8,341 nt of DNA from a virus (Duplodnaviria; Heunggongvirae; Uroviricota; Caudoviricetes): IMG/VR virus record IMGVR_UViG_2681813265_000006. The stretch is one strand, 5' to 3'. Positions 1 through 8,341 of this stretch are shown in pieces. Made by a program: the position numbers and the translations under genes. Numbering within the stretch: position 1 is the first letter of the stretch; each line of letters begins with the position of its first letter. The notes under the pieces were generated by a model, which did not search any database, was not told where the DNA came from, and saw only the letters and a program-made list of their open reading frames with translations.

Positions 1-37
1 AACAAATGGTAGTGTCCGCTATTGCCAGTACACCTCA
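1..37. repeat. IR-L: left arm of a 37-bp perfect inverted repeat (partner at 8298..8334)
   Basis: Positions 1..37 are the exact reverse complement of 8298..8334. Each arm carries 5 nt of leader, an ATG and the first 10 codons (MVVSAIASTP) of an ORF reading into the window. Identity breaks at 38 / 8297; the arms may extend beyond the window edges. Confidence 0.9.
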
Positions 38-122
38 GGGTATAAGGGGTTATGGCCACCGGACTACCAAACGGCTGCCAGCCCTCTTTCAGTTTATGTG
101 TCAGCTTTTCCGCAAGATCTGA
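6..122 (+). pseudogene. Short ORF (38 aa, MVVSAIASTPQGIRGYGH...) that shares its first 10 codons with gene A (8099..8329) and then diverges; probably a truncated or recombinant remnant
   Basis: ATG at 6..8 inside IR-L, stop TGA at 120..122. Divergence from the gene A sequence begins exactly at the IR boundary (codon 11). Followed by a 12-bp perfect palindrome GGCGGCGCCGCC at 124..135. Confidence 0.3.
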
Positions 123-357
123 CGGCGGCGCCGCCCTGACAACATCATAGTGTTTAAATGCCATGGTTCTTTCCACCATCTGAAAAATAATTCTTTAAAA
201 TACCTGACATGTAATACAGAAAAAACACAAAACCATACCTTAAATAAAAACCTGATTATCAAGCAGATATGCATGGATAAACTACAAGACGAGATATAAA
301 CCACCCTGCATTTAAATAAACAATAAACAACATCAGAAAAATAATTCTGCTCTATGG

Positions 358-384
358 TTTACATTCAAAAATATCATTTATACT
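358..384 (+). promoter_or_regulatory. Putative sigma70 promoter for the ORF at 425..760
   Basis: TTTACA (358..363), 15-nt spacer, TATACT (379..384). An AAGGA Shine-Dalgarno lies at 414..418, 6 nt before the ATG at 425. The region is AT-rich, so promoter-like hexamers are expected by chance. Confidence 0.25.
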
Positions 385-424
385 TTTCAGAACATCACCA
401 GCAAGGCATAAACAAGGAAACTAA

Positions 425-760
425 ATGAAGTGGATTGTGATTGATACAGTTATCCAGCCATCATGCGGAATATCTTTTTCAGTCATATGGAGTAAAATAA
501 AATTAATAATCTGGTATCAATCGGATGCTTTCTTACCTCCTGAAAGTATATTTACACTGACTCACACAGGCATCATGCTCAATAACAAAGTGCTACCTGT
601 AACCATTTACAACGTAGTACCATTCAATAAAACATTCTGGAATTCAATCAAAAATAGCCAGGAATGCCCTACAAATACAGATAACGTATTGAATGAATGC
701 TTTAATAACCGTTGCACTCTGCAAATATGTCCTTATGGACTAAAACAACAAAGTCCATAA
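425..760 (+). CDS. Hypothetical 111-aa Cys-containing protein encoded in an AT-rich island, on the strand opposite to all phage genes
   Basis: 111-codon open frame in markedly AT-rich DNA (where stop codons are frequent), with a good SD (AAGGA, 6-nt spacer) and a candidate promoter. No family recognised by eye. Confidence 0.35.
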
Positions 761-794
761 GGAGTTTACTCACATCTGACAAAATCAATATAAA

Positions 795-816
795 CAGCCC
801 CTCCGGAGAGGGGCTG
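795..816 (-). terminator. Perfect 9-bp-stem hairpin (CAGCCCCTC-cgga-GAGGGGCTG), terminator-like for minus-strand transcripts
   Basis: Stem 795..803 / 808..816, loop CGGA. On the minus strand it is followed by a U-rich stretch (GUUUAUAUUGAUUUUG); on the plus strand no U tract follows. The 3' arm is the first bases of repeat R2 copy A. Confidence 0.35.
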
Positions 817-1022
817 GAGAGTGGCGCTATGTGCCATTGCATGGTGCCGGGTGCCTCCCGGTGAATTCAGTACCAGCACCTGAATCCGCGATTATCCCAT
901 ATACCTACTCGCTGATTGCCCCTCCGCACAGGGGGATTCACCATGCCAGTTTCTTTTAACAAACTCCCCGCAAACCAGACAACAGTCAACCGCCTGAATT
1001 GTGAAGTATTTAAAAATTTCTC
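811..1022. repeat. R2 copy A: ~212-bp direct repeat (partner at 2136..2347)
   Basis: Offset of exactly 1325 bp between copies. One mismatch in the first ~175 bp, about 6 mismatches in the last ~40 bp. Contains hairpins and a conserved SD + ATG (943). Confidence 0.85.
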
Positions 1023-1207
1023 CCGCTAACTGATACCCGGCTAACAGTCTGGCGTTTTCTTTTTCAGCAACGGGAAAGCAACAACCACCACACCCGCCAC
1101 CAGCACACCGTCAGCCAGCACTGACATTATCCGGCTGCTGCAATGCCATTCACAAAAACAGTAAGCAATCACTTTTTACCGTAACAGGTGATAATCCAGA
1201 TATGTAT

Positions 1208-1534
1208 CTACCCCAGATGAGTAATCCGAAGTTCATCCATACCACAGGTCCTGGCTATTCTGTTGTACTCCTGAACAAGAGCAAATAATTCTGAATTAGC
1301 AACCATGAACTCATCGCAAACCCTCTGTATAGCATCACTATTCAGAATAATAACGTCTCTTCCCGAAAGACGATCAGGAGTACAGAACAAAACTGTCAAA
1401 CGGCTGAAGGCCTTTGCTCGTGCTGCATTGACTATATCAATACGCTGCCTAAGGATGAAACACCCCGACGCCTCATCAATATTCACTCTACCCACACCAT
1501 ATGAATGATAAATATTTAATGCTGAAAAAACCAT
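1208..1534 (-). CDS. Hypothetical protein, 108 aa from ATG 1534 (117 aa if the TTG at 1561 is used); unrecognised cargo ORF downstream of tRNA copy 1
   Basis: Longest ORF in the 650-bp block (1023..1671) that is absent from the second module copy. Weak SD. The TTG-start version has a hydrophobic N-terminus (IECLLYGLMVFSALNIY). No family recognised. Confidence 0.3.
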   Translation of the reverse strand: MVFSALNIYHSYGVGRVNIDEASGCFILRQRIDIVNAARAKAFSRLTVLFCTPDRLSGRDVIILNSDAIQRVCDEFMVANSELFALVQEYNRIARTCGMDELRITHLG

Positions 1535-1671
1535 TAGACCGTATAACAAACACTCAATCAATACTTAACAGAACTTTTATTTTTGACAAACATAAAATAT
1601 TTTCAACAATATCCTGAGCCAGGTATATTTCAGTATAAGGCTCTGCCGGAAGGAATCTGGAAGAATGAATA

Positions 1672-1748
1672 TGGCGCGCTGTACTGGATTCGAACCAGTG
1701 ACCGATTGCTTAGAAGGCAATTGCTCTGTCCGGCTGAGCTAACAACGC
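1672..1748 (-). tRNA. argO: tRNA-Arg (anticodon UCU), copy 1
   Basis: Reverse complement folds as a cloverleaf: acceptor GCGUUGU/ACAGCGC (U4-G69 wobble), anticodon loop CUUCUAA, T-loop UUCGAAU, 3' GCCA. Third gene of an ileZ-argN-argO-type cluster as in Stx phages. Confidence 0.85.
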
Positions 1749-1761
1749 TGAATACCGATAA

Positions 1762-1842
1762 TGGACCGCCATCGGGGACCCGCCCCCGCACCAACAACCC
1801 TGTTATCGTGTCGTCTGCTCTTCCTGATAAGCTAATGGCGGT
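1762..1842 (-). pseudogene. Degenerate tRNA-Arg(UCG)-like gene (argN remnant), copy 1
   Basis: The 5' acceptor/D-arm and the 3' acceptor end match the intact copy at 2467..2543, but the central ~35 nt (anticodon arm, variable region and T-loop) are replaced by unrelated sequence. No canonical anticodon stem or T-loop can be drawn. Confidence 0.55.
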
Positions 1843-1848
1843 TTGTGA

Positions 1849-1924
1849 TGGTGGCCCTTGCTGGATTTGAACCAGCGACCTGGCGATTATGAGTCGCTCG
1901 CTCTCACCACTGAGCTAAAGGGCC
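1849..1924 (-). tRNA. ileZ: tRNA-Ile2 (anticodon CAU, ileX-like, lysidine type), copy 1
   Basis: Cloverleaf with anticodon loop CUCAUAA and T-loop UUCAAAU. Near-identical in sequence to E. coli ileX/ileY as I remember them. Identical to copy 2. Confidence 0.85.
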
Positions 1925-1961
1925 GGGAGCAGAATAATAACGGTCCGTAATTAATTCCGCA
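1925..1961 (-). promoter_or_regulatory. Putative promoter of tRNA cluster copy 1
   Basis: Minus strand: -35 TTGCGG (1957..1962), 17-nt spacer, -10 TATTAT (1934..1939), about 8 nt before the tRNA-Ile 5' end. Homologous to 2627..2664 upstream of copy 2. Confidence 0.4.
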
Positions 1962-1962
1962 A

Positions 1963-1987
1963 TAAAAAACCCGCTCGGCGGCGGGTT
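1963..1987 (-). terminator. Duplicate copy of the late terminator tR'
   Basis: Minus-strand hairpin AACCCGC-cgccga-GCGGGUU followed by U6; same sequence as 4193..4217. Confidence 0.7.
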
Positions 1988-2034
1988 GTAGAAACTCTTC
2001 TAACGTCAGGCATAAAACGCCCATAGTTATGACG

Positions 2035-2062
2035 AATTTACCACAGATTCCGGAAAAATCAA
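2035..2062 (-). promoter_or_regulatory. Duplicate copy of the late promoter PR'
   Basis: -35 TTGATT (2057..2062), 16-nt spacer, extended -10 TGGTAAATT (2035..2043). The initial transcribed sequence has AACTAT where the genuine copy has AACGAT. Confidence 0.6.
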
Positions 2063-2135
2063 CCTAGTTACCTTTTTTAACTGCCGCTCAGCCCATGCTT
2101 CTTCAATATCAAACCGAGTCACCAGCGCATCATAA
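2063..2135 (-). pseudogene. Fragment of the Q 3' end (last ~24 codons) fused to R2; remnant from recombination or duplication
   Basis: About 97% identical to 4301..4373 (Q C-terminal codons plus stop region). It lacks the 8-bp tandem duplication present in the intact gene. Homology ends abruptly at 2135/2136 where R2 copy B begins. Confidence 0.8.
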
Positions 2136-2347
2136 GGGCTGGAGAGTGGCGCTATGTGCCATTGCATGATGCCGGGTGCCTCCCGGTGAATTCAGTACCA
2201 GCACCTGAATCCGCGATTATCCCATATACCTACTCGCTGATTGCCCCTCCGCACAGGGGGATTCACCATGCCAGTTTCTTTTAACAAACTCCCCGCAAAA
2301 CAGACAACTGTCAACCGTCTGAATTGTGAGACATTTAAAAAAAAGGC
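2136..2347. repeat. R2 copy B (partner at 811..1022)
   Basis: See copy A. Begins at the junction with the Q fragment; its other end overlaps the tRNA-cluster terminator. Confidence 0.85.
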
Positions 2348-2362
2348 CCGCAAAAGCGAGCC
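2337..2362 (-). terminator. Rho-independent terminator downstream of tRNA cluster copy 2
   Basis: Minus-strand RNA GGCUCGC-UUUU-GCGGGCC (7-bp stem with one U-G pair) followed by U8. The plus-strand equivalent would have a C-A mismatch and no U tract. Confidence 0.7.
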
Positions 2363-2376
2363 AGGGAAAATAAGTG

Positions 2377-2453
2377 TGGCGCGTTGTACTGGATTCGAAC
2401 CAGTGACCGATTGCTTAGAAGGCAATTGCTCTGTCCGGCTGAGCTAACAACGC
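2377..2453 (-). tRNA. argO: tRNA-Arg (anticodon UCU), copy 2
   Basis: Same cloverleaf as copy 1 but with U4-A69 Watson-Crick instead of U4-G69. Confidence 0.85.
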
Positions 2454-2466
2454 ATGATGCAGATAA

Positions 2467-2543
2467 TGGACCGCCATCGGGGACTTGAACCCCGCGCAGC
2501 CAGCTTCGAAGGCTGGCGCTCTTTCCTGATGAGCTAATGGCGG
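2467..2543 (-). tRNA. argN: tRNA-Arg (anticodon UCG), intact
   Basis: Acceptor CCGCCAU/AUGGCGG, D-stem GCUC/GAGC, anticodon stem CCAGC/GCUGG with loop CUUCGAA, T-arm CGGGG-UUCAAGU-CCCCG, 3' UCCA. Confidence 0.8.
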
Positions 2544-2550
2544 TATGTGA

Positions 2551-2626
2551 TGGTGGCCCTTGCTGGATTTGAACCAGCGACCTGGCGATTATGAGTCGCT
2601 CGCTCTCACCACTGAGCTAAAGGGCC
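2551..2626 (-). tRNA. ileZ: tRNA-Ile2 (anticodon CAU, ileX-like), copy 2
   Basis: Identical to 1849..1924. Confidence 0.85.
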
Positions 2627-2664
2627 GGGAGCCGCATAATAACGACGCGTAATTAATTCTTCAA
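2627..2664 (-). promoter_or_regulatory. Putative promoter of tRNA cluster copy 2
   Basis: -35 TTGAAG (2659..2664), 17-nt spacer, -10 TATTAT (2636..2641); directly abuts the methyltransferase stop codon. Confidence 0.4.
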
Positions 2665-2666
2665 TA

Positions 2667-3725
2667 TCATCCGTTCTGGCTGACTAAATCCTGTACTTCC
2701 CGAACCGTCTGCTCAAAACGTTCAGTCTCCAGCTCAACGCCAATTGCACGACGCCCGAGCGCCAGTGCCGCTTTCACTGTCGAACCCAACCCCATGAAAA
2801 AATCTGCAATCAGGTCACCCGGACGACTGCTAGCGCTGATTATCTGCTGCAGCATTTCTGCCGGTTTTTCGCACGGATGTTTCCCGGGATAGAACTGCAC
2901 CGGTTTATGCGTCCACACATCGGTATACGGCACCTGCACCGTCACGCCAAAATACCGCCGCAGATGTTTATATTCACTCAGCAGCTCCGCATACTGCCGG
3001 TTCAGTGAGGTATACGTATCCACCAGCTGGTGGTGGAGCTTTTCCAGTTCACCACGCCGATGCTTCTCTTCTGCCACCCGGGCAAACAGCGCCTGTAATT
3101 TCAGATAATCGCTTTCATTCGGCAACTGCCACTGACCGGCACTGAACCAGTGCGACACCATGTTTTTCTTTCCTGTGGCATCTGCAATCTGTTTTGCCGT
3201 TATCCCCAGGGCAGCTCGCGCATCACGAAAGTAAGAAATCAGCGGGGCCATCACATGCTGTTTCAGTGCACTGCCCTTCGCCGCATACCCGGCATCTTTC
3301 GGACGATACGGCCCCTGATAATGTTCCGCGAACAGAATGCGCTCTGTGGCGGGGAAATACGCCCGCAGGCTTTCCTTGTTGCATCCGTTCCAGCGTCCGG
3401 ACGGCTTCGCCCAGATAATATGGTTCAGCACACTGAAGCGTTCACGCATCATGATTTCGATATCAGATGCCAGGCGATGACCACAGAACAGGTAAAGACT
3501 TCCGGCAGGTTTCAGCACCCGCCAGAACTGCGCCAGACACTGGTCCAGCCACTTCAGGTAATCATCGTCGCCCTTCCACTGGTTATCCCAGCCCTCAGGC
3601 TTCACTTTAAAGTACGGCGGGTCCGTGACTATCAGGTCAACAGAATTTTCGGGTAACGACCGGATAAATTCCAGGCAGTCGGCGTTGATTAACTCACAAC
3701 TGGATATTTTTACAGTATTAAGCAT
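2667..3725 (-). CDS. Orphan DNA N6-adenine methyltransferase, beta class, prophage-encoded (352 aa)
   Basis: DLIVTDPPYF (motif IV, DPPY) near the N-terminus and FFMGLGSTVKAALALGRRAIGVE (FxGxG motif I, SAM-binding) near the C-terminus; the order IV then I indicates the beta class. The central region has an HTH-like segment (GITAKQIADATGKK...). No restriction endonuclease partner is present in the window. Confidence 0.8.
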   Translation of the reverse strand: MLNTVKISSCELINADCLEFIRSLPENSVDLIVTDPPYFKVKPEGWDNQWKGDDDYLKWLDQCLAQFWRVLKPAGSLYLFCGHRLASDIEIMMRERFSVLNHIIWAKPSGRWNGCNKESLRAYFPATERILFAEHYQGPYRPKDAGYAAKGSALKQHVMAPLISYFRDARAALGITAKQIADATGKKNMVSHWFSAGQWQLPNESDYLKLQALFARVAEEKHRRGELEKLHHQLVDTYTSLNRQYAELLSEYKHLRRYFGVTVQVPYTDVWTHKPVQFYPGKHPCEKPAEMLQQIISASSRPGDLIADFFMGLGSTVKAALALGRRAIGVELETERFEQTVREVQDLVSQNG

Positions 3726-3818
3726 GGATCATTAAGCCTGTCTCTGATAGGCTCATTCTGCTTTTGCGCAAAGCAGTGGGCCTGAGGTTTGCTTGTGAAC
3801 CCAACGCATGAGCAGATG

Positions 3819-3847
3819 GCTGGTGGGTGCCCCTAACACCCACCAGC
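3819..3847. other. Perfect 11-bp-stem palindromic hairpin (GCTGGTGGGTG-cccctaa-CACCCACCAGC) in the methyltransferase leader
   Basis: Seen directly in the sequence; no U tract on either side. A second near-perfect palindrome lies at 3758..3776 (CTGCTTTtgcgcAAAGCAG). Confidence 0.6.
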
Positions 3848-3860
3848 CGCCCATTTACCA

Positions 3861-3889
3861 CAAATAAAAAAGCCTTCACTGCGGAAGGC
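3861..3889 (-). terminator. Rho-independent terminator downstream of the small HTH ORF
   Basis: Minus-strand RNA GCCUUC-CGCAGU-GAAGGC followed by UUUUUUAUUU. The HTH ORF stop codon lies inside the hairpin. Confidence 0.6.
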
Positions 3890-4073
3890 GTCTGTAACAA
3901 CCGAACTGATAGTCTGCCAGACCCGCCATAACCAGCTGGGTCAGTATTAACTGGCAGCGTTCGCGTGAAAGGTAAGTATTCTGCGCTATCTCCCCGACTG
4001 TCGCCGGTTCGGTAACGCTTAATTCATTAAACACCACTCTGGCGGTTTCTGTCATATCCTGCTGTTTTAGCAT
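3876..4073 (-). CDS. Small (65 aa) putative winged-helix / HTH DNA-binding protein
   Basis: Good SD (AAGGA, 6-nt spacer). The segment TVGEIAQNTYLSRERCQLILTQLVMAGLADYQ resembles the recognition helix and wing of small wHTH regulators. First gene of the HTH-methyltransferase cassette. Confidence 0.45.
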   Translation of the reverse strand: MLKQQDMTETARVVFNELSVTEPATVGEIAQNTYLSRERCQLILTQLVMAGLADYQFGCYRRLPQ

Positions 4074-4192
4074 GTCTTTTCCTTTTCCGGTTAACGTGAC
4101 ACACCAATAACTCTTGTCGAAAAAGCCAGCAAGCTGAAAGACAGGTATTCACCGCCACCAGCGCGTTTACTGTACTGACGCGATTTCAGTCA

Positions 4193-4217
4193 TAAAAAAC
4201 CCGCTCGGCGGCGGGTT
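4193..4217 (-). terminator. tR' late terminator ending a short PR' transcript of about 65 nt
   Basis: Minus-strand hairpin AACCCGC-cgccga-GCGGGUU followed by UUUUUUAU, about 40 nt downstream of the predicted PR' start. Confidence 0.75.
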
Positions 4218-4252
4218 GTAGAAACTCTTCTAACGTCAGGCATAAAACGCCC

Positions 4253-4292
4253 ATCGTTATGACGAATTTACCACAGATTCCGGAAAAATCAA
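4253..4292 (-). promoter_or_regulatory. Late promoter PR' with sigma70-dependent pause element (qut region)
   Basis: -35 TTGATT (4287..4292), 16-nt spacer, extended -10 TGGTAAATT (4265..4273), then AACGAT at about +1..+6 (4253..4258). This is the same -10-like pause-inducing hexamer as in lambda PR'. Located immediately downstream of the Q stop codon. Confidence 0.7.
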
Positions 4293-4297
4293 CCTTG

Positions 4298-5119
4298 TTA
4301 CCTAGTTACCTTTTTTAACTGCCGCTCAGCCCATGCTTCTTCAATATCAAACCGGGTCACCAGCGCATCATAAAATTTCTTAACTGTTTTTTCCCATGAC
4401 GCGCGTGTTATCTGGTTTGTCACCTCGCATATAGCATTAAATGCCTCCGTTGATGGTAGTCTTTCATAGCCACGACCACCACAACGCTGGCAGTCTCTGA
4501 TAACAGGCATACCACGTTTTACCGACTCTTCACGATGAATGGCGACACCACGCCCACGGCAATCCTTACAGGCGGTGGAAACCTCACCCTTTCCGCCACA
4601 CTCCGGACAGGCAACTTTTACCACCTCCCTGACTTTTTTCCATTCTTCCCAGTAAGACGGATACACACCTTTCGTACACTTTGCCCATACCGGCGGCTTA
4701 CCATCCGGATACTGGATCTTGTTTGTAAAAACCTCGCTTTCAATAAATTTTTTTCCGTGACAGCAGGGGCACTGTTTTTTGCTCGCCGCGCTACGGGCAT
4801 AATCTTCAAACGCATACGAAGCCATAATACGCATCACTGCCGGTTTTATTTCTGCCGGGAGTTTTCTTAACGCCGCCACGCGATCACACCGACTGAGTGC
4901 ATATTCTGTCAGCAATTCTGTTGCCCGCTCTCTGTCATTCATACTAATGCCCATTTTCCCAAGGAACGCAGAAACCCCCATCTCAGCCCGATTCTGTGTC
5001 ATGCCCTGCGCGGCCATCACATCAGTGATACTCAGCGCATCTTTCGACGTTGAGGCCGATGCATCAGTCAGGCCGGGGGATTTTGGGGAGTAGTATTTCG
5101 GTAAATCTTCCAGTTTCAT
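4298..5119 (-). CDS. Q: Late-gene antiterminator Q (273 aa)
   Basis: Position immediately upstream of a lambda-like PR'/tR' unit. Several CxxC pairs (CPCC, CPEC, CKDC, CQRC) consistent with Q-family zinc fingers. ATGA overlap with rusA. Confidence 0.8.
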   Translation of the reverse strand: MKLEDLPKYYSPKSPGLTDASASTSKDALSITDVMAAQGMTQNRAEMGVSAFLGKMGISMNDRERATELLTEYALSRCDRVAALRKLPAEIKPAVMRIMASYAFEDYARSAASKKQCPCCHGKKFIESEVFTNKIQYPDGKPPVWAKCTKGVYPSYWEEWKKVREVVKVACPECGGKGEVSTACKDCRGRGVAIHREESVKRGMPVIRDCQRCGGRGYERLPSTEAFNAICEVTNQITRASWEKTVKKFYDALVTRFDIEEAWAERQLKKVTR

Positions 5120-5496
5120 TTTTTGACCTGCCCTTCAAGCATTATGGGATAAATCTTCACCCCCAGACGTCCACCAGATACTGGCTGAGCACGAACGATA
5201 TTGATTTCATCAAACTGCTCATCGTCCATTAGCAACCCCGCATGCGTCAGCGCATCCAGCGGCGCTTTCAGAATATTGTCCAGGTCACGGCGGCGCTTAT
5301 CCGGTGGTTCTGCAATAATTTTTATTGCCAACCTTCCGGACAGGCTTAATTTCAGCCGCTGCTGGCGAACAATAAGCGCCACTGCCCGGCGATAACGCTC
5401 CCCGGCTTTTGATACAAAATATGTGCTGCCACGACGACGCCAGTAAGTGTTCACCGTCGGCGGGTAAGGTAAAACAAATTCTATGCGCTCGGTCAT
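5116..5496 (-). CDS. rusA: Holliday-junction resolvase RusA (126 aa)
   Basis: N-terminus MTERIEFVLPYPPTVNTYW and the acidic catalytic region RRRDLDNILKAPLDAL...LLMDDEQ match RusA. Its start abuts the stop of the upstream ORF (TAAATG). Confidence 0.85.
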   Translation of the reverse strand: MTERIEFVLPYPPTVNTYWRRRGSTYFVSKAGERYRRAVALIVRQQRLKLSLSGRLAIKIIAEPPDKRRRDLDNILKAPLDALTHAGLLMDDEQFDEINIVRAQPVSGGRLGVKIYPIMLEGQVKK

Positions 5497-6555
5497 TTAT
5501 GCTTTCCACTTCAGAACACCCGAATTTCTCGCGTGCATTAAAAAACGAATCAGCAACAACAGCTGACTGCCGTGTTTCTCTTCAAAATCTTTTACTCCGG
5601 CATGTAGTTCGTTACGGCATTTACGGCATAACGGAATAACAAACAAATCATCAGCCTTTGTTCCCATCCCTCCCAGTCCATGACCAATGATGTGATGCGG
5701 ATCATCTGCCTGATTGCCACACGTCATGCATTTCTGCGTTTTTACCCAGCGCGTGTATACAGGCATCTCTTCCCGTTGTGATTTCTGGCGCTGGAGATAC
5801 TGAGCCGGTGACTCCGGATCAACGGCAATGCTGACCACCGTCTTTTCCTGTGGTGGGTTCTGTTGCTGGTGGACGTGAGGCAGTAACGCAATATTTTTTG
5901 TGCGCTGCTTCAGTATGCTGGTGGCTGTCTGCTCTCCCGGTATGATGTCGCTTTCACTGTACACAGAGCGAATTTTTTCCGCACGCAACCCCAGCGAACG
6001 ACGTAATACCGCTTCCGGTAGCGCGTCCGCCACCTGATTGCGGACCGCCCACCAGGATAATTCAGCCAGAGATAATTCACGCTCCTGCGTACCGCTTATT
6101 GCGTGACCGATGACGTCAATCATCCATGCTGACAGGTTTTGATGAGCAAGTTGCTCGAGTGATTCGGATGTCTGGTCACGCAGCTGGTTGTCGCAGTGCC
6201 AGCACAACACCATTGCGCCGGTACCATAACGGTGAATGACGGTTTCGCTGTGATGATAATCGCCGTGTGGCCACTGGCAGGATTTAATATGGCGCAACAG
6301 CCAGTCAGACAATGCACCAGCACCACCAGCAGCACGAATCACCCGTGCGTTACTGAAAAACGGCAGCAATGTTTTGTCTTCCACCAGCGGCTGGCGAGCG
6401 GCAGGAACGACCCCGGACGGCAGATTACGCATGCTTTTTGGTTCCGGCTCCACCAGTATTCTGCCGTTATGGAATGCTGACATTGATTCACGGCCTGGCT
6501 TAACGATAACCAGACCGAGTTCCGGTACCAGAACAGGTCGAAGTAATACCCGCAC
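5497..6555 (-). CDS. Prophage nin-region protein, YdfU-like (DUF968) with a C-terminal Cys/His-rich HNH-like motif
   Basis: Synteny hokD-rem-(this ORF)-Q as in the Qin prophage. C-terminal CMTCGNQADDPHH...CRKCRNELH resembles NinG/HNH zinc motifs. The start is ambiguous: GTG 6555 has GGAGG 4 nt upstream; the alternative ATG at 6483 gives 328 aa. Confidence 0.55.
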   Translation of the reverse strand: MRVLLRPVLVPELGLVIVKPGRESMSAFHNGRILVEPEPKSMRNLPSGVVPAARQPLVEDKTLLPFFSNARVIRAAGGAGALSDWLLRHIKSCQWPHGDYHHSETVIHRYGTGAMVLCWHCDNQLRDQTSESLEQLAHQNLSAWMIDVIGHAISGTQERELSLAELSWWAVRNQVADALPEAVLRRSLGLRAEKIRSVYSESDIIPGEQTATSILKQRTKNIALLPHVHQQQNPPQEKTVVSIAVDPESPAQYLQRQKSQREEMPVYTRWVKTQKCMTCGNQADDPHHIIGHGLGGMGTKADDLFVIPLCRKCRNELHAGVKDFEEKHGSQLLLLIRFLMHARNSGVLKWKA

Positions 6556-6630
6556 ATTACCTCCAGATCCGTTGCTGGAATGTGCGGGACGGACGCGTTG
6601 GCCGTTCGGAGTAAGGGAGCCTGACGGAGA

Positions 6631-6912
6631 TTATCCAGTGACGGTAGTCGAGGCTAAGGGCTTTTTTAACCTCGCATCCGCGCCTGCGGTAACACTGAAT
6701 GAGCCATTCGGCCTGTTCTTCAGTGCATGGGGGATGCTGGTACCAATCAGATTTAAATGCGTGAGAGCGCCGCCCGTGCCTGCTGGCAAAGACGGCTGAA
6801 TTATCAGAATTGTGTAGTCTGGAAGGCAGTGGCTGACAATAGCGCCATTCTCAACGCGCACAGTATAGAGGCCATCTTCACTAAAAATTTCACGTAATTC
6901 TTCGATTTTCAT
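6631..6912 (-). CDS. Rem-like small ORF (93 aa) at the position of Qin rem
   Basis: ATG at 6912 preceded by GGAAGGA with an 8-nt spacer. The N-terminal 25 residues look protein-like; the remainder is low-complexity and overlaps a long stop-free alternative frame (see findings). Confidence 0.4.
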   Translation of the reverse strand: MKIEELREIFSEDGLYTVRVENGAIVSHCLPDYTILIIQPSLPAGTGGALTHLNLIGTSIPHALKNRPNGSFSVTAGADARLKKPLASTTVTG

Positions 6913-7033
6913 CAACAGAATCCTTCCAGATAAATAGCACTCCCCTGTTCGGGGTCCATCCCTCTTCTCCCTGCGCGCTACTTAAGTATTTTTGATTCTA
7001 TTCCGGCACCATCTAAAACTTCAAACGCGTTGA

Positions 7034-7064
7034 AAATAAAAACAAAAACCCGCCGAAGCGGGTT
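7034..7064 (-). terminator. Rho-independent terminator of the hok transcript
   Basis: Minus-strand AACCCGC-UUCG-GCGGGUU followed by UUUUGUUUUUAUUUU. A GAAA-tetraloop stem-loop (plus coordinates 7104..7125) lies just after the hok stop. Confidence 0.75.
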
Positions 7065-7132
7065 AAGTGTGGGTGCATTGAGGATGCCTGACCCATCAGA
7101 GGTGGCGAGGGATTTCTCCCCCGCCTGGTCTC

Positions 7133-7288
7133 TTACTCCTCAGGTTCGTAAGCTGTGAAGACAGCGACCTCCGTCTGGCCGGTTCGAATTCGTACCTCGC
7201 AGAGGTCTTTCCTCGTTACCAGTGCCGTCACTATGACGGTTAAACAGATGACGATCAGGGCGATTAACATCGCCTTTTGCTGCTTCAT
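7133..7288 (-). CDS. hokD: Hok-family type I toxin, HokD/RelF-like (51 aa)
   Basis: Translation MKQQKAMLIALIVICLTVIVTALVTRKDLCEVRIRTGQTEVAVFTAYEPEE matches HokD as I remember it. SD AAGGAG lies 9 nt upstream. The ORF-track version (7133..7345) adds an in-frame 19-codon extension. Confidence 0.85.
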   Translation of the reverse strand: MKQQKAMLIALIVICLTVIVTALVTRKDLCEVRIRTGQTEVAVFTAYEPEE

Positions 7289-7499
7289 AGCCTGCTTCTC
7301 CTTGCCTTTCGGCACGTAAGAGGCTAACCTAGATTTGCCGTTCATAGATTGAGCCTCAGATTAATGTTAAGCGTCTTGCCGGACGCGTAATGTTAACTGG
7401 GGCTTTTCTCTATCTGCCTTTTGGTGTTCATGCCTGAGACAGATAGCCTCAAGCACCCGCTGCAATTCTACTTAACTCTCCTTTTCCCGCAAACCGTTT

Positions 7500-7583
7500 T
7501 TATCCCCAGCGGCAAATCGAATACACCACCAGCGCCACCGCCATCGCAATTCCTACCGTTGTTAATGCTTCAGGCCAGGTCAT
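7500..7583 (-). CDS. 27-aa hydrophobic peptide ([27 protein letters not shown]), translationally coupled to gene C
   Basis: Its ATG overlaps the gene C stop (ATGA). A single predicted transmembrane helix. Below the ORF-track size cutoff, found by manual translation. Confidence 0.4.
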
Positions 7584-7924
7584 CGTAAAATATCCTCCAC
7601 GCTTATCAGTCCGTTCCGCTCCAGATAACTCATCGCCTTATCCGGTAATTTGCAGTCTGGCTTCGCTTTCCTCAGTTGCCAGGTTAACTGCTTTACCAGC
7701 ATGGTTAACTCATCGACCAGACGCTGATATCCCACTGGTTTGTATTCATGCAATTTACCGGCTGGCTCTGCTGCCAGCGATACCAGTGCGATTTCCAGAA
7801 CAGCAATATCCATCTTATATGTGCGGATGATGTCATGGTCGATTGTGCCCGGTATGCACAGTCTCTGTGCTTCAATAGTCTCCTCTGCGTGAGCTATTAA
7901 CTGCTCTCTGGTAAAAGTCGTCAT
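7580..7924 (-). CDS. Hypothetical nin-region protein C (114 aa), paralogous to gene B
   Basis: Its ATG overlaps the gene B stop (ATGA). Shares MTTxTxE at the N-terminus and an A(L)xSLxAEP motif with gene B. Confidence 0.6.
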
Positions 7925-8088
7925 GCCGTAGCCCCTTCTTGATATTTTTCAAACCAGAACACAACCGGCTCTGCTTCCAGCGATGCCAGCGCAATCCGTG
8001 CCAGTTCCATTTGTTCACCACGGGTAAGCCCGTTTTCAAGCGGGTTTTTAATGAACAATTCAATACGTTCTTTGGTAATAGTGGTCAT
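7921..8088 (-). CDS. Hypothetical nin-region protein B (55 aa), short paralog of gene C
   Basis: ATG at 8088 preceded by AAGGAG (6-nt spacer), which overlaps the gene A stop. Translation [55 protein letters not shown]. Missed by the ORF track because it is under 60 aa; the track's 7872..8063 ORF is the wrong frame. Confidence 0.55.
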
Positions 8089-8098
8089 GTGTTACTCC

Positions 8099-8329
8099 TT
8101 AACCCGCAGTGCTTTCAACTGATGAGGGGAACAAAATCTTTTCATCAAACCCTGCATTCATATCATGAACAGCAACACACCAATCCATCGACGAACGATT
8201 ATCAAGAGCCTCCATGATTTCATCCATGCGGCGTAGGTCATACAGGTAAATGCTTTTATCGCCAATGGTGTAAAAGCCAATTTTTTTCGGTGATGGATGA
8301 GGTGTACTGGCAATAGCGGACACTACCAT
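8099..8329 (-). CDS. Hypothetical protein A (at least 76 aa), first gene of the coupled A-B-C-D operon; its start lies within IR-R
   Basis: The ORF reads from the ATG at 8329. There is no in-frame stop in the 4 codons upstream before the window edge, so the true start may lie outside the window. No family recognised. Confidence 0.45.
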   Translation of the reverse strand: MVVSAIASTPHPSPKKIGFYTIGDKSIYLYDLRRMDEIMEALDNRSSMDWCVAVHDMNAGFDEKILFPSSVESTAG

Positions 8330-8334
8330 TTGTT
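8298..8334. repeat. IR-R: right arm of the 37-bp perfect inverted repeat
   Basis: Exact reverse complement of 1..37; contains the ATG (8327..8329, minus strand) of CDS 8099..8329. Confidence 0.9.
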
Positions 8335-8341
8335 CTTTTTT

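Follow-up and report, generated by a model that had tools for sequence, protein, structure and literature searches.

[quoted passage not shown]

The closest described system is IraL of the uropathogenic Escherichia coli strain CFT073 (Hryckowian et al. 2014, mBio, PMC4045071), which elevates σS in unstressed log-phase cells. Deletion of iraL lowers log-phase σS in both CFT073 and Shigella sonnei, whose own iraL copy was studied directly in the same work, and shortens the half-life of σS from 5 to 2.5 min, an effect that is rescued by iraL supplied with its promoter region from −100 to +33. [quoted passage not shown] IraL has also been reported to rise in a fur mutant (PMC7157518). For IraM, the residues that touch the RssB receiver domain (cluster I) are I4, I6, W22, K26, and I42, and residues 1–78 alone are sufficient for RssB binding (PMC10844676). 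The C-terminal tail was removed for crystallography, and the IraM structure paper describes it as flexible and less conserved.

Here, we analyzed a window of 8,341 nucleotides (the whole stretch of DNA under study), which comes from a lambdoid prophage and is read on its minus strand. The original prediction, made from the sequence, was that an AT-rich island at 170–790 with an opposite-strand gene for a 111-residue protein is a moron, a term used here in the Hendrix/Juhala sense. [quoted passage not shown] The features of the window are as follows.

1..37, no strand: end of an IS3-family element, which cuts DUF1737 (inverted partner end at 8298–8334)
38..164, minus: first 42 codons of DUF1737, a truncated late gene (Pfam PF08410, E = 1e-15; homology to CFT073 ends at 38)
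about 165..794, no strand: AT-rich iraL cassette (moron), 630 bp, GC about 0.32, from composition and alignment
174..194, plus: 21-nt direct repeat CAnCATCnGAAAAATAATTCT, copy 1, from a repeat search
328..348, plus: 21-nt direct repeat CAnCATCnGAAAAATAATTCT, copy 2, at −64 to −44 of the iraL transcription start site (TSS), conserved in the Stx2c-phage cassette
358..363, plus: −35 hexamer TTTACA, from the sequence, which fits the RACE TSS and is identical in CFT073
379..384, plus: −10 hexamer TATACT, after a 15-nt spacer and 7 nt before the TSS
392, plus: iraL TSS, the published 5'-RACE end, giving a 5' UTR of 33 nt
414..419, plus: Shine–Dalgarno (SD) sequence AAGGAA, 5 nt before the ATG
425..760, plus: assigned iraL coding sequence (ORF calling, NCBIfam, PDB, CFT073 comparison, AF2/Foldseek); protein residues 1–79, PmrD-like β-barrel; residues 80–111, Cys4 tail
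665..733, plus: codons of the tail motif C81-P82 ... C92 ... C97 ... C102-P103, from family conservation (pLDDT below 50)
786..975, minus: STnc100 sRNA gene, convergent with iraL (Rfam RF02076, 132.4 bits against a gathering cutoff of 47, model positions 1–206)
795..816, minus: GC-rich 9-bp hairpin, the intrinsic terminator of STnc100, with the T-run TTTATATTGATTTT on the minus strand
1041..1172, minus: DUF3927 gene
1672..2626, minus: five tRNA genes
2667..3725, minus: DNA methylase
4298..5119, minus: Q-type antiterminator
5116..5496, minus: RusA
5497..6555, minus: DUF968

The composition of the island is as extreme as proposed. By direct count, the GC content is 0.322 at 170–790, against 0.515 at 1–169 and 0.498 at 791–8341, that is, 32% in the island and 50% elsewhere. 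When the whole sequence is scanned in sliding segments of 621 nt, GC reaches its minimum (0.320) in the segment starting at position 174, compared with a mean of 0.491 (sd 0.044) for all such segments and 0.401 for the next lowest that does not overlap. The codon-usage check that had been called for agrees with this, as the GC3 of the ORF at 425..760 is 0.33, compared with 0.47–0.60 in the Q, RusA, DUF968, and methylase genes. This ORF starts with ATG on the plus strand and encodes 111 amino acids followed by a stop codon; it is present as claimed, together with its SD sequence, the promoter elements at 358–384, and the 9-bp hairpin at 795–816. The description of it as the only substantial plus-strand ORF needs qualification, since two ORFs exceed it in length, 3150..3656 (168 aa) and 6374..6799 (141 aa), although each of them lies antisense within a bigger minus-strand gene.

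The protein, described as unrecognized in the original prediction, is in fact readily identified, and the homology and structure searches suggested there place it in the IraM/IraL family, with abundant homologs. The NCBIfam model NF007393 ("anti-adapter protein IraM"), whose cutoff is 121 bits, recognizes it at 162 bits, with residues 1–110 of 111 aligned to model positions 1–113 of 114, and a sequence search matches it to IraM(1–78) in PDB entry 8TWD (E = 6e-31). Compared with IraL of CFT073 (WP_000871291.1), 110 of the 111 residues are identical, the sole change being L74S. The work that described IraL set a subtype threshold of at least 95% nucleotide identity to CFT073 iraL across the full coding region (PMC4045071); the gene in the window shows 99.4%, with 2 differences in 336 nt. 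For the upstream region, where at least 96% identity to the CFT073 promoter region and presence of the TSS sequence are expected, we found 4 differences in 165–424 and the TSS sequence in place. K-12 IraM is more distant, at 61% identity over 107 residues. Based on these sequence comparisons, ORF 425..760 is the characterized prophage gene iraL, a member of the IraM/IraL family of RssB anti-adaptors.

The gene is thus of an already known kind, described in 2014 and annotated as IraM in thousands of genomes. The exact protein is the standard Shigella allele, deposited at NCBI as "MULTISPECIES: anti-adapter protein IraM [Shigella]" and found on at least 999 contigs. Among 5426 complete E. coli genomes, 2210 have a match, 1429 of which span 80% or more of the query with an identity of 90% or higher, and the RefSeq name for iraL DNA in E. 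coli genomes (approximately 2200) is IraM. Other resources are less informative. A search of ORF 425..760 against current Pfam-A gave nothing significant (a sub-threshold chance match to Nairovirus NSm had E = 0.056), the precomputed annotation of the sequence collection gives PF11183 (PmrD), and PHROGs lists the family as phrog_4407, "unknown function," which means that a phage-centred annotation would have missed the gene.

The AF2 model of the protein has pLDDT values of 72–90 for residues 1–79, which form a β-barrel plus a helix, with predicted strands at residues 2–11, 16–22, 26–33, 42–45, 49–52, and 55–66 and a helix at 69–77. In Foldseek, the best match of this model is 8twd_A, the IraM chain of the IraM–RssB complex (TM 0.89, rmsd 1.3 Å), and the next is PmrD (4HN7; TM 0.74, rmsd 1.9 Å). 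The model thus predicts for residues 1–78 the PmrD-like antiparallel β-barrel with C-terminal helix that characterizes the IraM/IraL family. All five receiver-domain contact residues of IraM (I4, I6, W22, K26, and I42) are identical in the window protein. Contacts to the C-terminal domain and linker of RssB differ from those of IraM (T13S, L75I, H63N, and I64V), and these changes would fit the reported binding of IraL to the RssB N-terminal domain only. Other authors demonstrated RssB binding and σS stabilization experimentally with the near-identical protein of CFT073 and provided genetic evidence in S. sonnei; judging from the sequence, the L74S allele in this genome is presumably active as well.

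The promoter that had been proposed at 358–384 stands up well against published data. The 5' end of iraL mRNA in CFT073, determined by 5'-RACE, is ACATCACCAGCAAGGCATAAACAAGGAAACCA (PMC4045071). This sequence corresponds to window positions 392–423 with one mismatch (31/32) and is exact in CFT073. The RACE end therefore maps to position 392, seven bases past TATACT, which shows that the proposed promoter is real. A simple promoter scan missed it because the spacer is 15 nt. In CFT073 ΔiraL, σS stability was restored by the gene together with the −100 to +33 fragment (PMC4045071), which corresponds to window positions 292–424 and stops at the ATG. The −35 hexamer varies, reading TTTATA in phage 640R1 and carrying a 1-bp deletion in L012, and the −10 hexamer reads TATAAT in the diverged Stx2c-phage cassette; the SD sequence is conserved in all cassettes, including the latter, which is 69% identical. 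The 21-nt direct repeat (174–194 and 328–348) is specific to iraL cassettes, and no such repeat is expected by chance. The expectation that the gene would be expressed from the prophage in growing lysogens also holds, as shown by the 5'-RACE data for CFT073 and the ΔiraL σS phenotype in CFT073 and S. sonnei (PMC4045071).

Other regulatory sites were sought upstream of the gene. For Fur, the best site in 165–424 matches 11 of 19 positions, a score equalled by 95% of shuffles, and no site exceeds chance, so that the rise of IraL in a fur mutant is probably indirect. A PhoP-box candidate, TGTTTA-N5-TATTTA at 313–329 on the minus strand, matches 11 of 12 positions, and is matched by 6% of shuffles; it was not counted as evidence.

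Alignment with related phages defines the cassette. In PhiR5_1 and the Stx2a phage TL-2011c, which have the flanks and lack iraL, homology extends up to the DUF1737 start codon (162–164) and resumes exactly at the hairpin, placing the cassette at approximately 165–794; in both phages, it is replaced by an unrelated spacer of approximately 230 bp with normal GC. Related phages thus have the same two genes on either side, with or without the cassette, which has its own promoter, with a TSS, and a deviant composition (GC 0.32 versus 0.50). A terminator of its own is seen only in part, as the hairpin is shared with STnc100 and is not followed by a U-tract in the iraL direction. The iraL cassette is a textbook moron, horizontally acquired, and the moron reading of the original prediction was right: the gene is AT-rich, self-promoted, and on the opposite strand.

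The hairpin at 795–816, CAGCCCCTC-CGGA-GAGGGGCTG, has a perfect 9-bp stem and a 4-nt loop. It is the sole hairpin downstream of iraL, and it is perfectly conserved both in the 69%-identical Stx2c-phage cassette and in the iraL-less phage PhiR5_1. The original prediction took it as the right-hand boundary of the island; the perfect stem is there, but the element is primarily the terminator of the convergent STnc100 gene and not a boundary element of the island's own. Published STnc_100 primers (PMC12370729) match window positions 854–873 and 927–946, and in Stx2 phages STnc100 lies just downstream of stx2B (PMC12370729; bioRxiv 10.64898/2026.05.13.724894). The iraL gene therefore fills, on the opposite strand, the space between the STnc100 gene and DUF1737, which is the first of the late genes. 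The main effect of the hairpin, we infer, would be to halt minus-strand transcription that lacks Q modification, so that it does not run into iraL in the antisense direction; Q-modified late transcription would pass the hairpin. iraL and STnc100 may form one two-gene regulatory unit with a shared terminator, in which antisense read-through by Q-dependent late transcription would silence iraL upon induction, a reading that we grade as weaker than the one proposed below for the cysteine-rich tail.

The surrounding prophage has been rearranged considerably. In the original prediction, the left edge of the island was formed by a truncated ORF associated with an inverted repeat. Both are present, the ORF being the first 42 codons of the DUF1737 gene (DUF1737 is the N-terminal domain of NanS-p-type esterase genes) and the repeat consisting of two IS ends: positions 1–37 and 8298–8334 are perfectly complementary, as IS3-family ends in inverted orientation, with the cut at 37/38. 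The iraL slot lies between the Q/tRNA region and the lysis genes, and the stx genes hold the same slot in Stx phages. A shared gene order of Q, tRNAs, DUF3927, STnc100, iraL (on the opposite strand), DUF1737, holin, and lysozyme is found in CFT073, E. coli 042, and phage vB_EcoS-640R1. In the window, the region downstream of Q occurs twice in tandem, with five repeat families over the Q 3' end, the tRNAs, and STnc100. Positions 1–2134 are 99.95% identical to S. sonnei chromosomes, which match only up to 2134 and then continue with a full Q gene; hence, the junction at 2135/2136 is a scar where two prophages meet. Only a remnant is left, in which DUF1737 is cut by an IS element, the lysis genes are gone, and iraL is intact.

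Purifying selection on iraL is shown by dN/dS values of 0.08–0.17 between IraL, the Stx2c-phage homolog, and the IraM clades, where dS is near saturation in distant pairs, and of 0.13–0.25 among close IraL alleles. The ORF is intact at 111 residues in all 12 iraL loci sampled. Three findings had been named beforehand as speaking against the moron reading, namely a lack of expression, a lack of homologs, and a broken ORF; none of these was observed, as the gene is expressed, homologs are abundant, and all 12 copies are intact. Some of the searches were limited in scope. A scan of species-representative genomes gave 6 loci, as such representatives collapse E. coli and Shigella, and a word-indexed protein search reached Escherichia clusters only, whereas a full HMM search reached relatives in Citrobacter, Salmonella, and Enterobacter. 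Many long proteins (approximately 250–1900 aa) that the HMM search hit in 3–9 short stretches were treated as repeat-driven noise.

The C-terminal tail shows a conservation pattern of its own; the original prediction had already pointed out that the protein contains cysteines. The family motif C-P...C...C...C-P is present in the window protein, and none of C81, C92, C97, and C102 varies among 10 Escherichia clusters. A set of 31 distant family members, from Citrobacter, Salmonella, Enterobacter, and elsewhere and with identities as low as 20%, retains C81, C97, C102, and P103 without exception and C92 at a conservation of at least 90%; apart from these, only M1 and W72 never change. In these alignments, conservation across the Enterobacterales family peaks at the four tail cysteines and the prolines beside them. 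Such conservation is left unexplained by the RssB-binding model because IraM 1–78 alone binds RssB. The papers on IraM that we searched contain no mention of its cysteines or of zinc. AF2 leaves the tail (residues 80–111) unfolded, with pLDDT below 50, and so provides no structural argument for a metal site. As a tentative suggestion, to which we give appreciably less than even weight, residues 80–111 might be more than a dispensable flexible end and act as a module that binds metal or senses redox state through its conserved Cys4 set, thereby governing the stability or activity of anti-adaptors of the IraL/IraM type.

Three other readings of the locus were weighed. The gene product passes the same NCBIfam model as K-12 IraM and bears its RefSeq name, and the PhoP-box-like site at 313–329(−) falls within the −100 to +33 promoter fragment; one could thus regard the protein as functionally equivalent to the IraM of K-12, with induction by PhoP/PhoQ in Mg2+-starved cells, and not as a constitutive log-phase factor. 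We consider this very improbable, as iraL and K-12 iraM have unrelated DNA upstream, protein identity is just 61%, an equally good PhoP-like site occurs in 6% of shuffles, and IraL raises σS in unstressed log phase and binds RssB differently (PMC4045071). The state of the prophage suggests another possibility, namely that iraL is an inert leftover of a decaying element, neither expressed nor selected in this genome: the prophage is defective (IS3-family cut at 37/38, lysis genes missing, scar at 2135/2136), and one E. coli strain carries a frameshift in the related gene iraM. The ORF, SD sequence, −10, −35, and TSS region are, however, intact and identical or nearly identical to those of the expressed CFT073 locus, the exact protein is fixed across Shigella assemblies with dN/dS of about 0.1–0.25, and deletion of iraL in S. 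sonnei has a σS phenotype (PMC4045071), which makes this reading highly improbable.

A role in phage defence, superinfection exclusion, or classical virulence, as the original prediction had raised for such a moron, would suit the position, which is that of other morons (stx, bor), the AT-rich composition, and the separate promoter, and the PHROGs family phrog_4407 is listed without a function. This role has next to no probability in our assessment. The protein has a defined target, RssB, with a crystal structure of the complex, its known function is the control of host σS stability, and any effect on phages or virulence would be indirect, via σS. A comparison of the window protein with the PADLOC defence models gave 0 families at E ≤ 1, and the defence reading was dropped for this reason.

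For the preferred reading of the cassette, a self-promoted iraL moron, the following sequence of events can be proposed. Constitutive σ70 transcription from its own promoter would supply IraL apart from the late operon of the prophage, from the opposite strand. IraL would bind the response-regulator-type adaptor RssB on the N-terminal receiver domain, occupying the σS-binding face, and RssB blocked in this way would not deliver σS (RpoS) to the ClpXP protease. As a result, σS would be stabilized during exponential growth and the general stress regulon would be pre-armed. The analysis adds nothing new on iraL itself; it matters as a correct moron call from raw sequence. It also shows a Shigella prophage remnant that keeps a single host-regulatory gene raising σS in growing cells, a trait linked to the stress tolerance of uropathogenic E. 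coli and Shigella. Side points of use are the PHROGs family label, the unannotated Stx2-phage homologs, and the invariant Cys4 tail.

The locus most similar to the window is that of CFT073 IraL (Hryckowian et al. 2014, PMC4045071), with which it shares the promoter, TSS, and SD sequence as well as the flanks, in the order DUF3927, STnc100, iraL, DUF1737, in a lambdoid prophage (phi-potB). Window positions 38–1040 are approximately 99.4% identical to the phi-potB locus. The differences are L74S and 6 base differences over 38–1040, including those at 391, just upstream of the TSS, and at 422, in the 5' UTR; moreover, unlike the CFT073 prophage, the window prophage is truncated by an IS element and fused to a second prophage module.

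K-12 IraM (YcgW/ElbA), the Mg2+-starvation anti-adaptor seen with RssB in 8TWD, shares with IraL the family, the fold, the five receiver contacts, and the four tail cysteines. It differs in that the DNA upstream of iraM is unrelated and PhoP-controlled in K-12, with similarity confined to window positions 423–744, and in that the iraM locus adjoins e14. IraL has four extra C-terminal residues compared with IraM and changed contacts to the RssB C-terminal domain and linker (T13S, L75I, H63N, and I64V), and is reported to bind the RssB N-terminal domain only. PmrD, the connector that protects phospho-PmrA, is likewise a small β-barrel that binds a response-regulator receiver domain, but its identity to the window protein is 14%, its target is PmrA and not RssB, and it has no Cys4 tail.

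An IraL-like ORF in Stx2c/Stx2a phages (e.g., phage 2851, NC_049943) has the same slot, orientation, hairpin, SD sequence, and −10 position, with 74% protein identity and 69% identity over the whole cassette. It differs in encoding 107 residues and in lying directly downstream of stx2B. This homolog is present behind stx2B and STnc100 in approximately 40 Stx2c/Stx2a phage records, most of which leave it unannotated, and we found no study of it in the papers searched. Hryckowian et al. (PMC4045071) noted Shiga toxin-producing strains (STEC) with high log-phase σS yet no iraL, which makes this third, Stx2-phage clade one of interest.

Compared with other lambdoid morons (lambda bor and lom, and stx of Stx phages), the iraL cassette is likewise an independent transcription unit of deviant GC that has been inserted between two genes of the phage and is expressed by lysogens. 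In contrast to these, iraL is transcribed in the direction opposite to the late operon, the hairpin downstream of it also serves a convergent sRNA gene, and the IraL protein acts on the control of host proteolysis, not on the cell surface or on eukaryotic cells.

The segment carrying iraL, the 111-aa RssB anti-adaptor gene of the IraM/IraL family, contains several other small genes and repeats. The features outside the iraL region are:

1-37 and 8298-8334, perfect 37-nt inverted repeat, formed by the inward-facing termini of two IS3-family elements
786-975, minus strand, prophage sRNA STnc100, copy 1 (Rfam RF02076, 132 bits)
2125-2300, minus strand, STnc100, copy 2 (Rfam RF02076, 104 bits)
1041-1172, minus strand, DUF3927 membrane peptide of 43 aa (match to phrog_1470)
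7133-7458, minus strand, type I toxin-antitoxin system hok/sok (112 bits against Rfam sok)
7133..7345, minus strand, Hok-family ORF of that locus

Because the inverted repeat represents two inward-facing IS3-family ends, IS copies in inverted orientation bracket the entire 8.3 kb, and the left element truncates DUF1737. STnc100 copy 1 terminates in the 9-bp-stem hairpin at 795-816. The repeat common to both copies ends at 2136, which corresponds to position 811 within this hairpin, so that copy 2 seems to be missing the greater part of the terminator. The DUF3927 gene, which matches phrog_1470 (annotation [quoted passage not shown]), is a further small moron-type gene adjoining STnc100.

The region downstream of Q is tandemly duplicated, with five direct-repeat families (1659-2666 and 4185-4373); among the repeated parts are the 3' end of Q, of which a 74-nt copy occupies 2062-2135, and the genes for tRNA-Met and tRNA-Arg. 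Shigella sonnei chromosomes match the window only as far as 2134, and for this reason the junction 2135/2136 resembles a scar left by recombination of two lambdoid prophages.

Within and upstream of iraL, three features stand out:

665-733, plus strand, tail codons 81-103 of the iraL ORF, with C81, C92, C97, and C102
174-194 and 328-348, plus strand, 21-nt direct repeat CAnCATCnGAAAAATAATTCT (chance expectation, none)
313-329, minus strand, PhoP-box-like TGTTTA-TTGTT-TATTTA within the iraL promoter fragment

The four cysteines and their adjacent prolines are the most conserved positions of the IraM/IraL family across Enterobacterales. This tail is missing from the crystal structure and unfolded in AF2, and no discussion of it was found in the IraM literature searched.

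Phage 2851 (NC_049943; 6001-6324 of the fetched locus L003) carries an intact 107-aa IraL-like ORF that is 74% identical, and such an ORF also occurs in about 40 other Stx2c/Stx2a phage records, in most of which it is not annotated. Its orientation is opposite to that of the late genes, and it is flanked by stx2cB with an STnc100-like region and by a DUF1737 esterase gene, and may represent a third anti-adaptor clade, in O157:H7. In E. coli ECGI0523, the K-12-type iraM beside mcrA (L016 3001-3330) is a frameshifted pseudogene.

The 21-nt repeat is present in the fetched iraL cassettes and in none of the compared loci without the gene. Copy 1 lies immediately upstream of the DUF1737 start and copy 2 at -64 to -44 relative to the iraL transcription start; the repeat may be a regulator site. 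The PhoP-box-like site upstream of iraL is regarded as a weak lead, because 6% of shuffles of the same AT-rich stretch score equally. The iraL -35 hexamer in the window is TTTACA, the type found in uropathogenic E. coli CFT073. It varies naturally: E. coli ECMA0423 has lost 1 bp there (L012, about 2935-2940), and phage vB_EcoS-640R1 has TTTATA (L004, about 5934-5939), the latter being of the same kind as the change reported for iraL2 of JJ1886.
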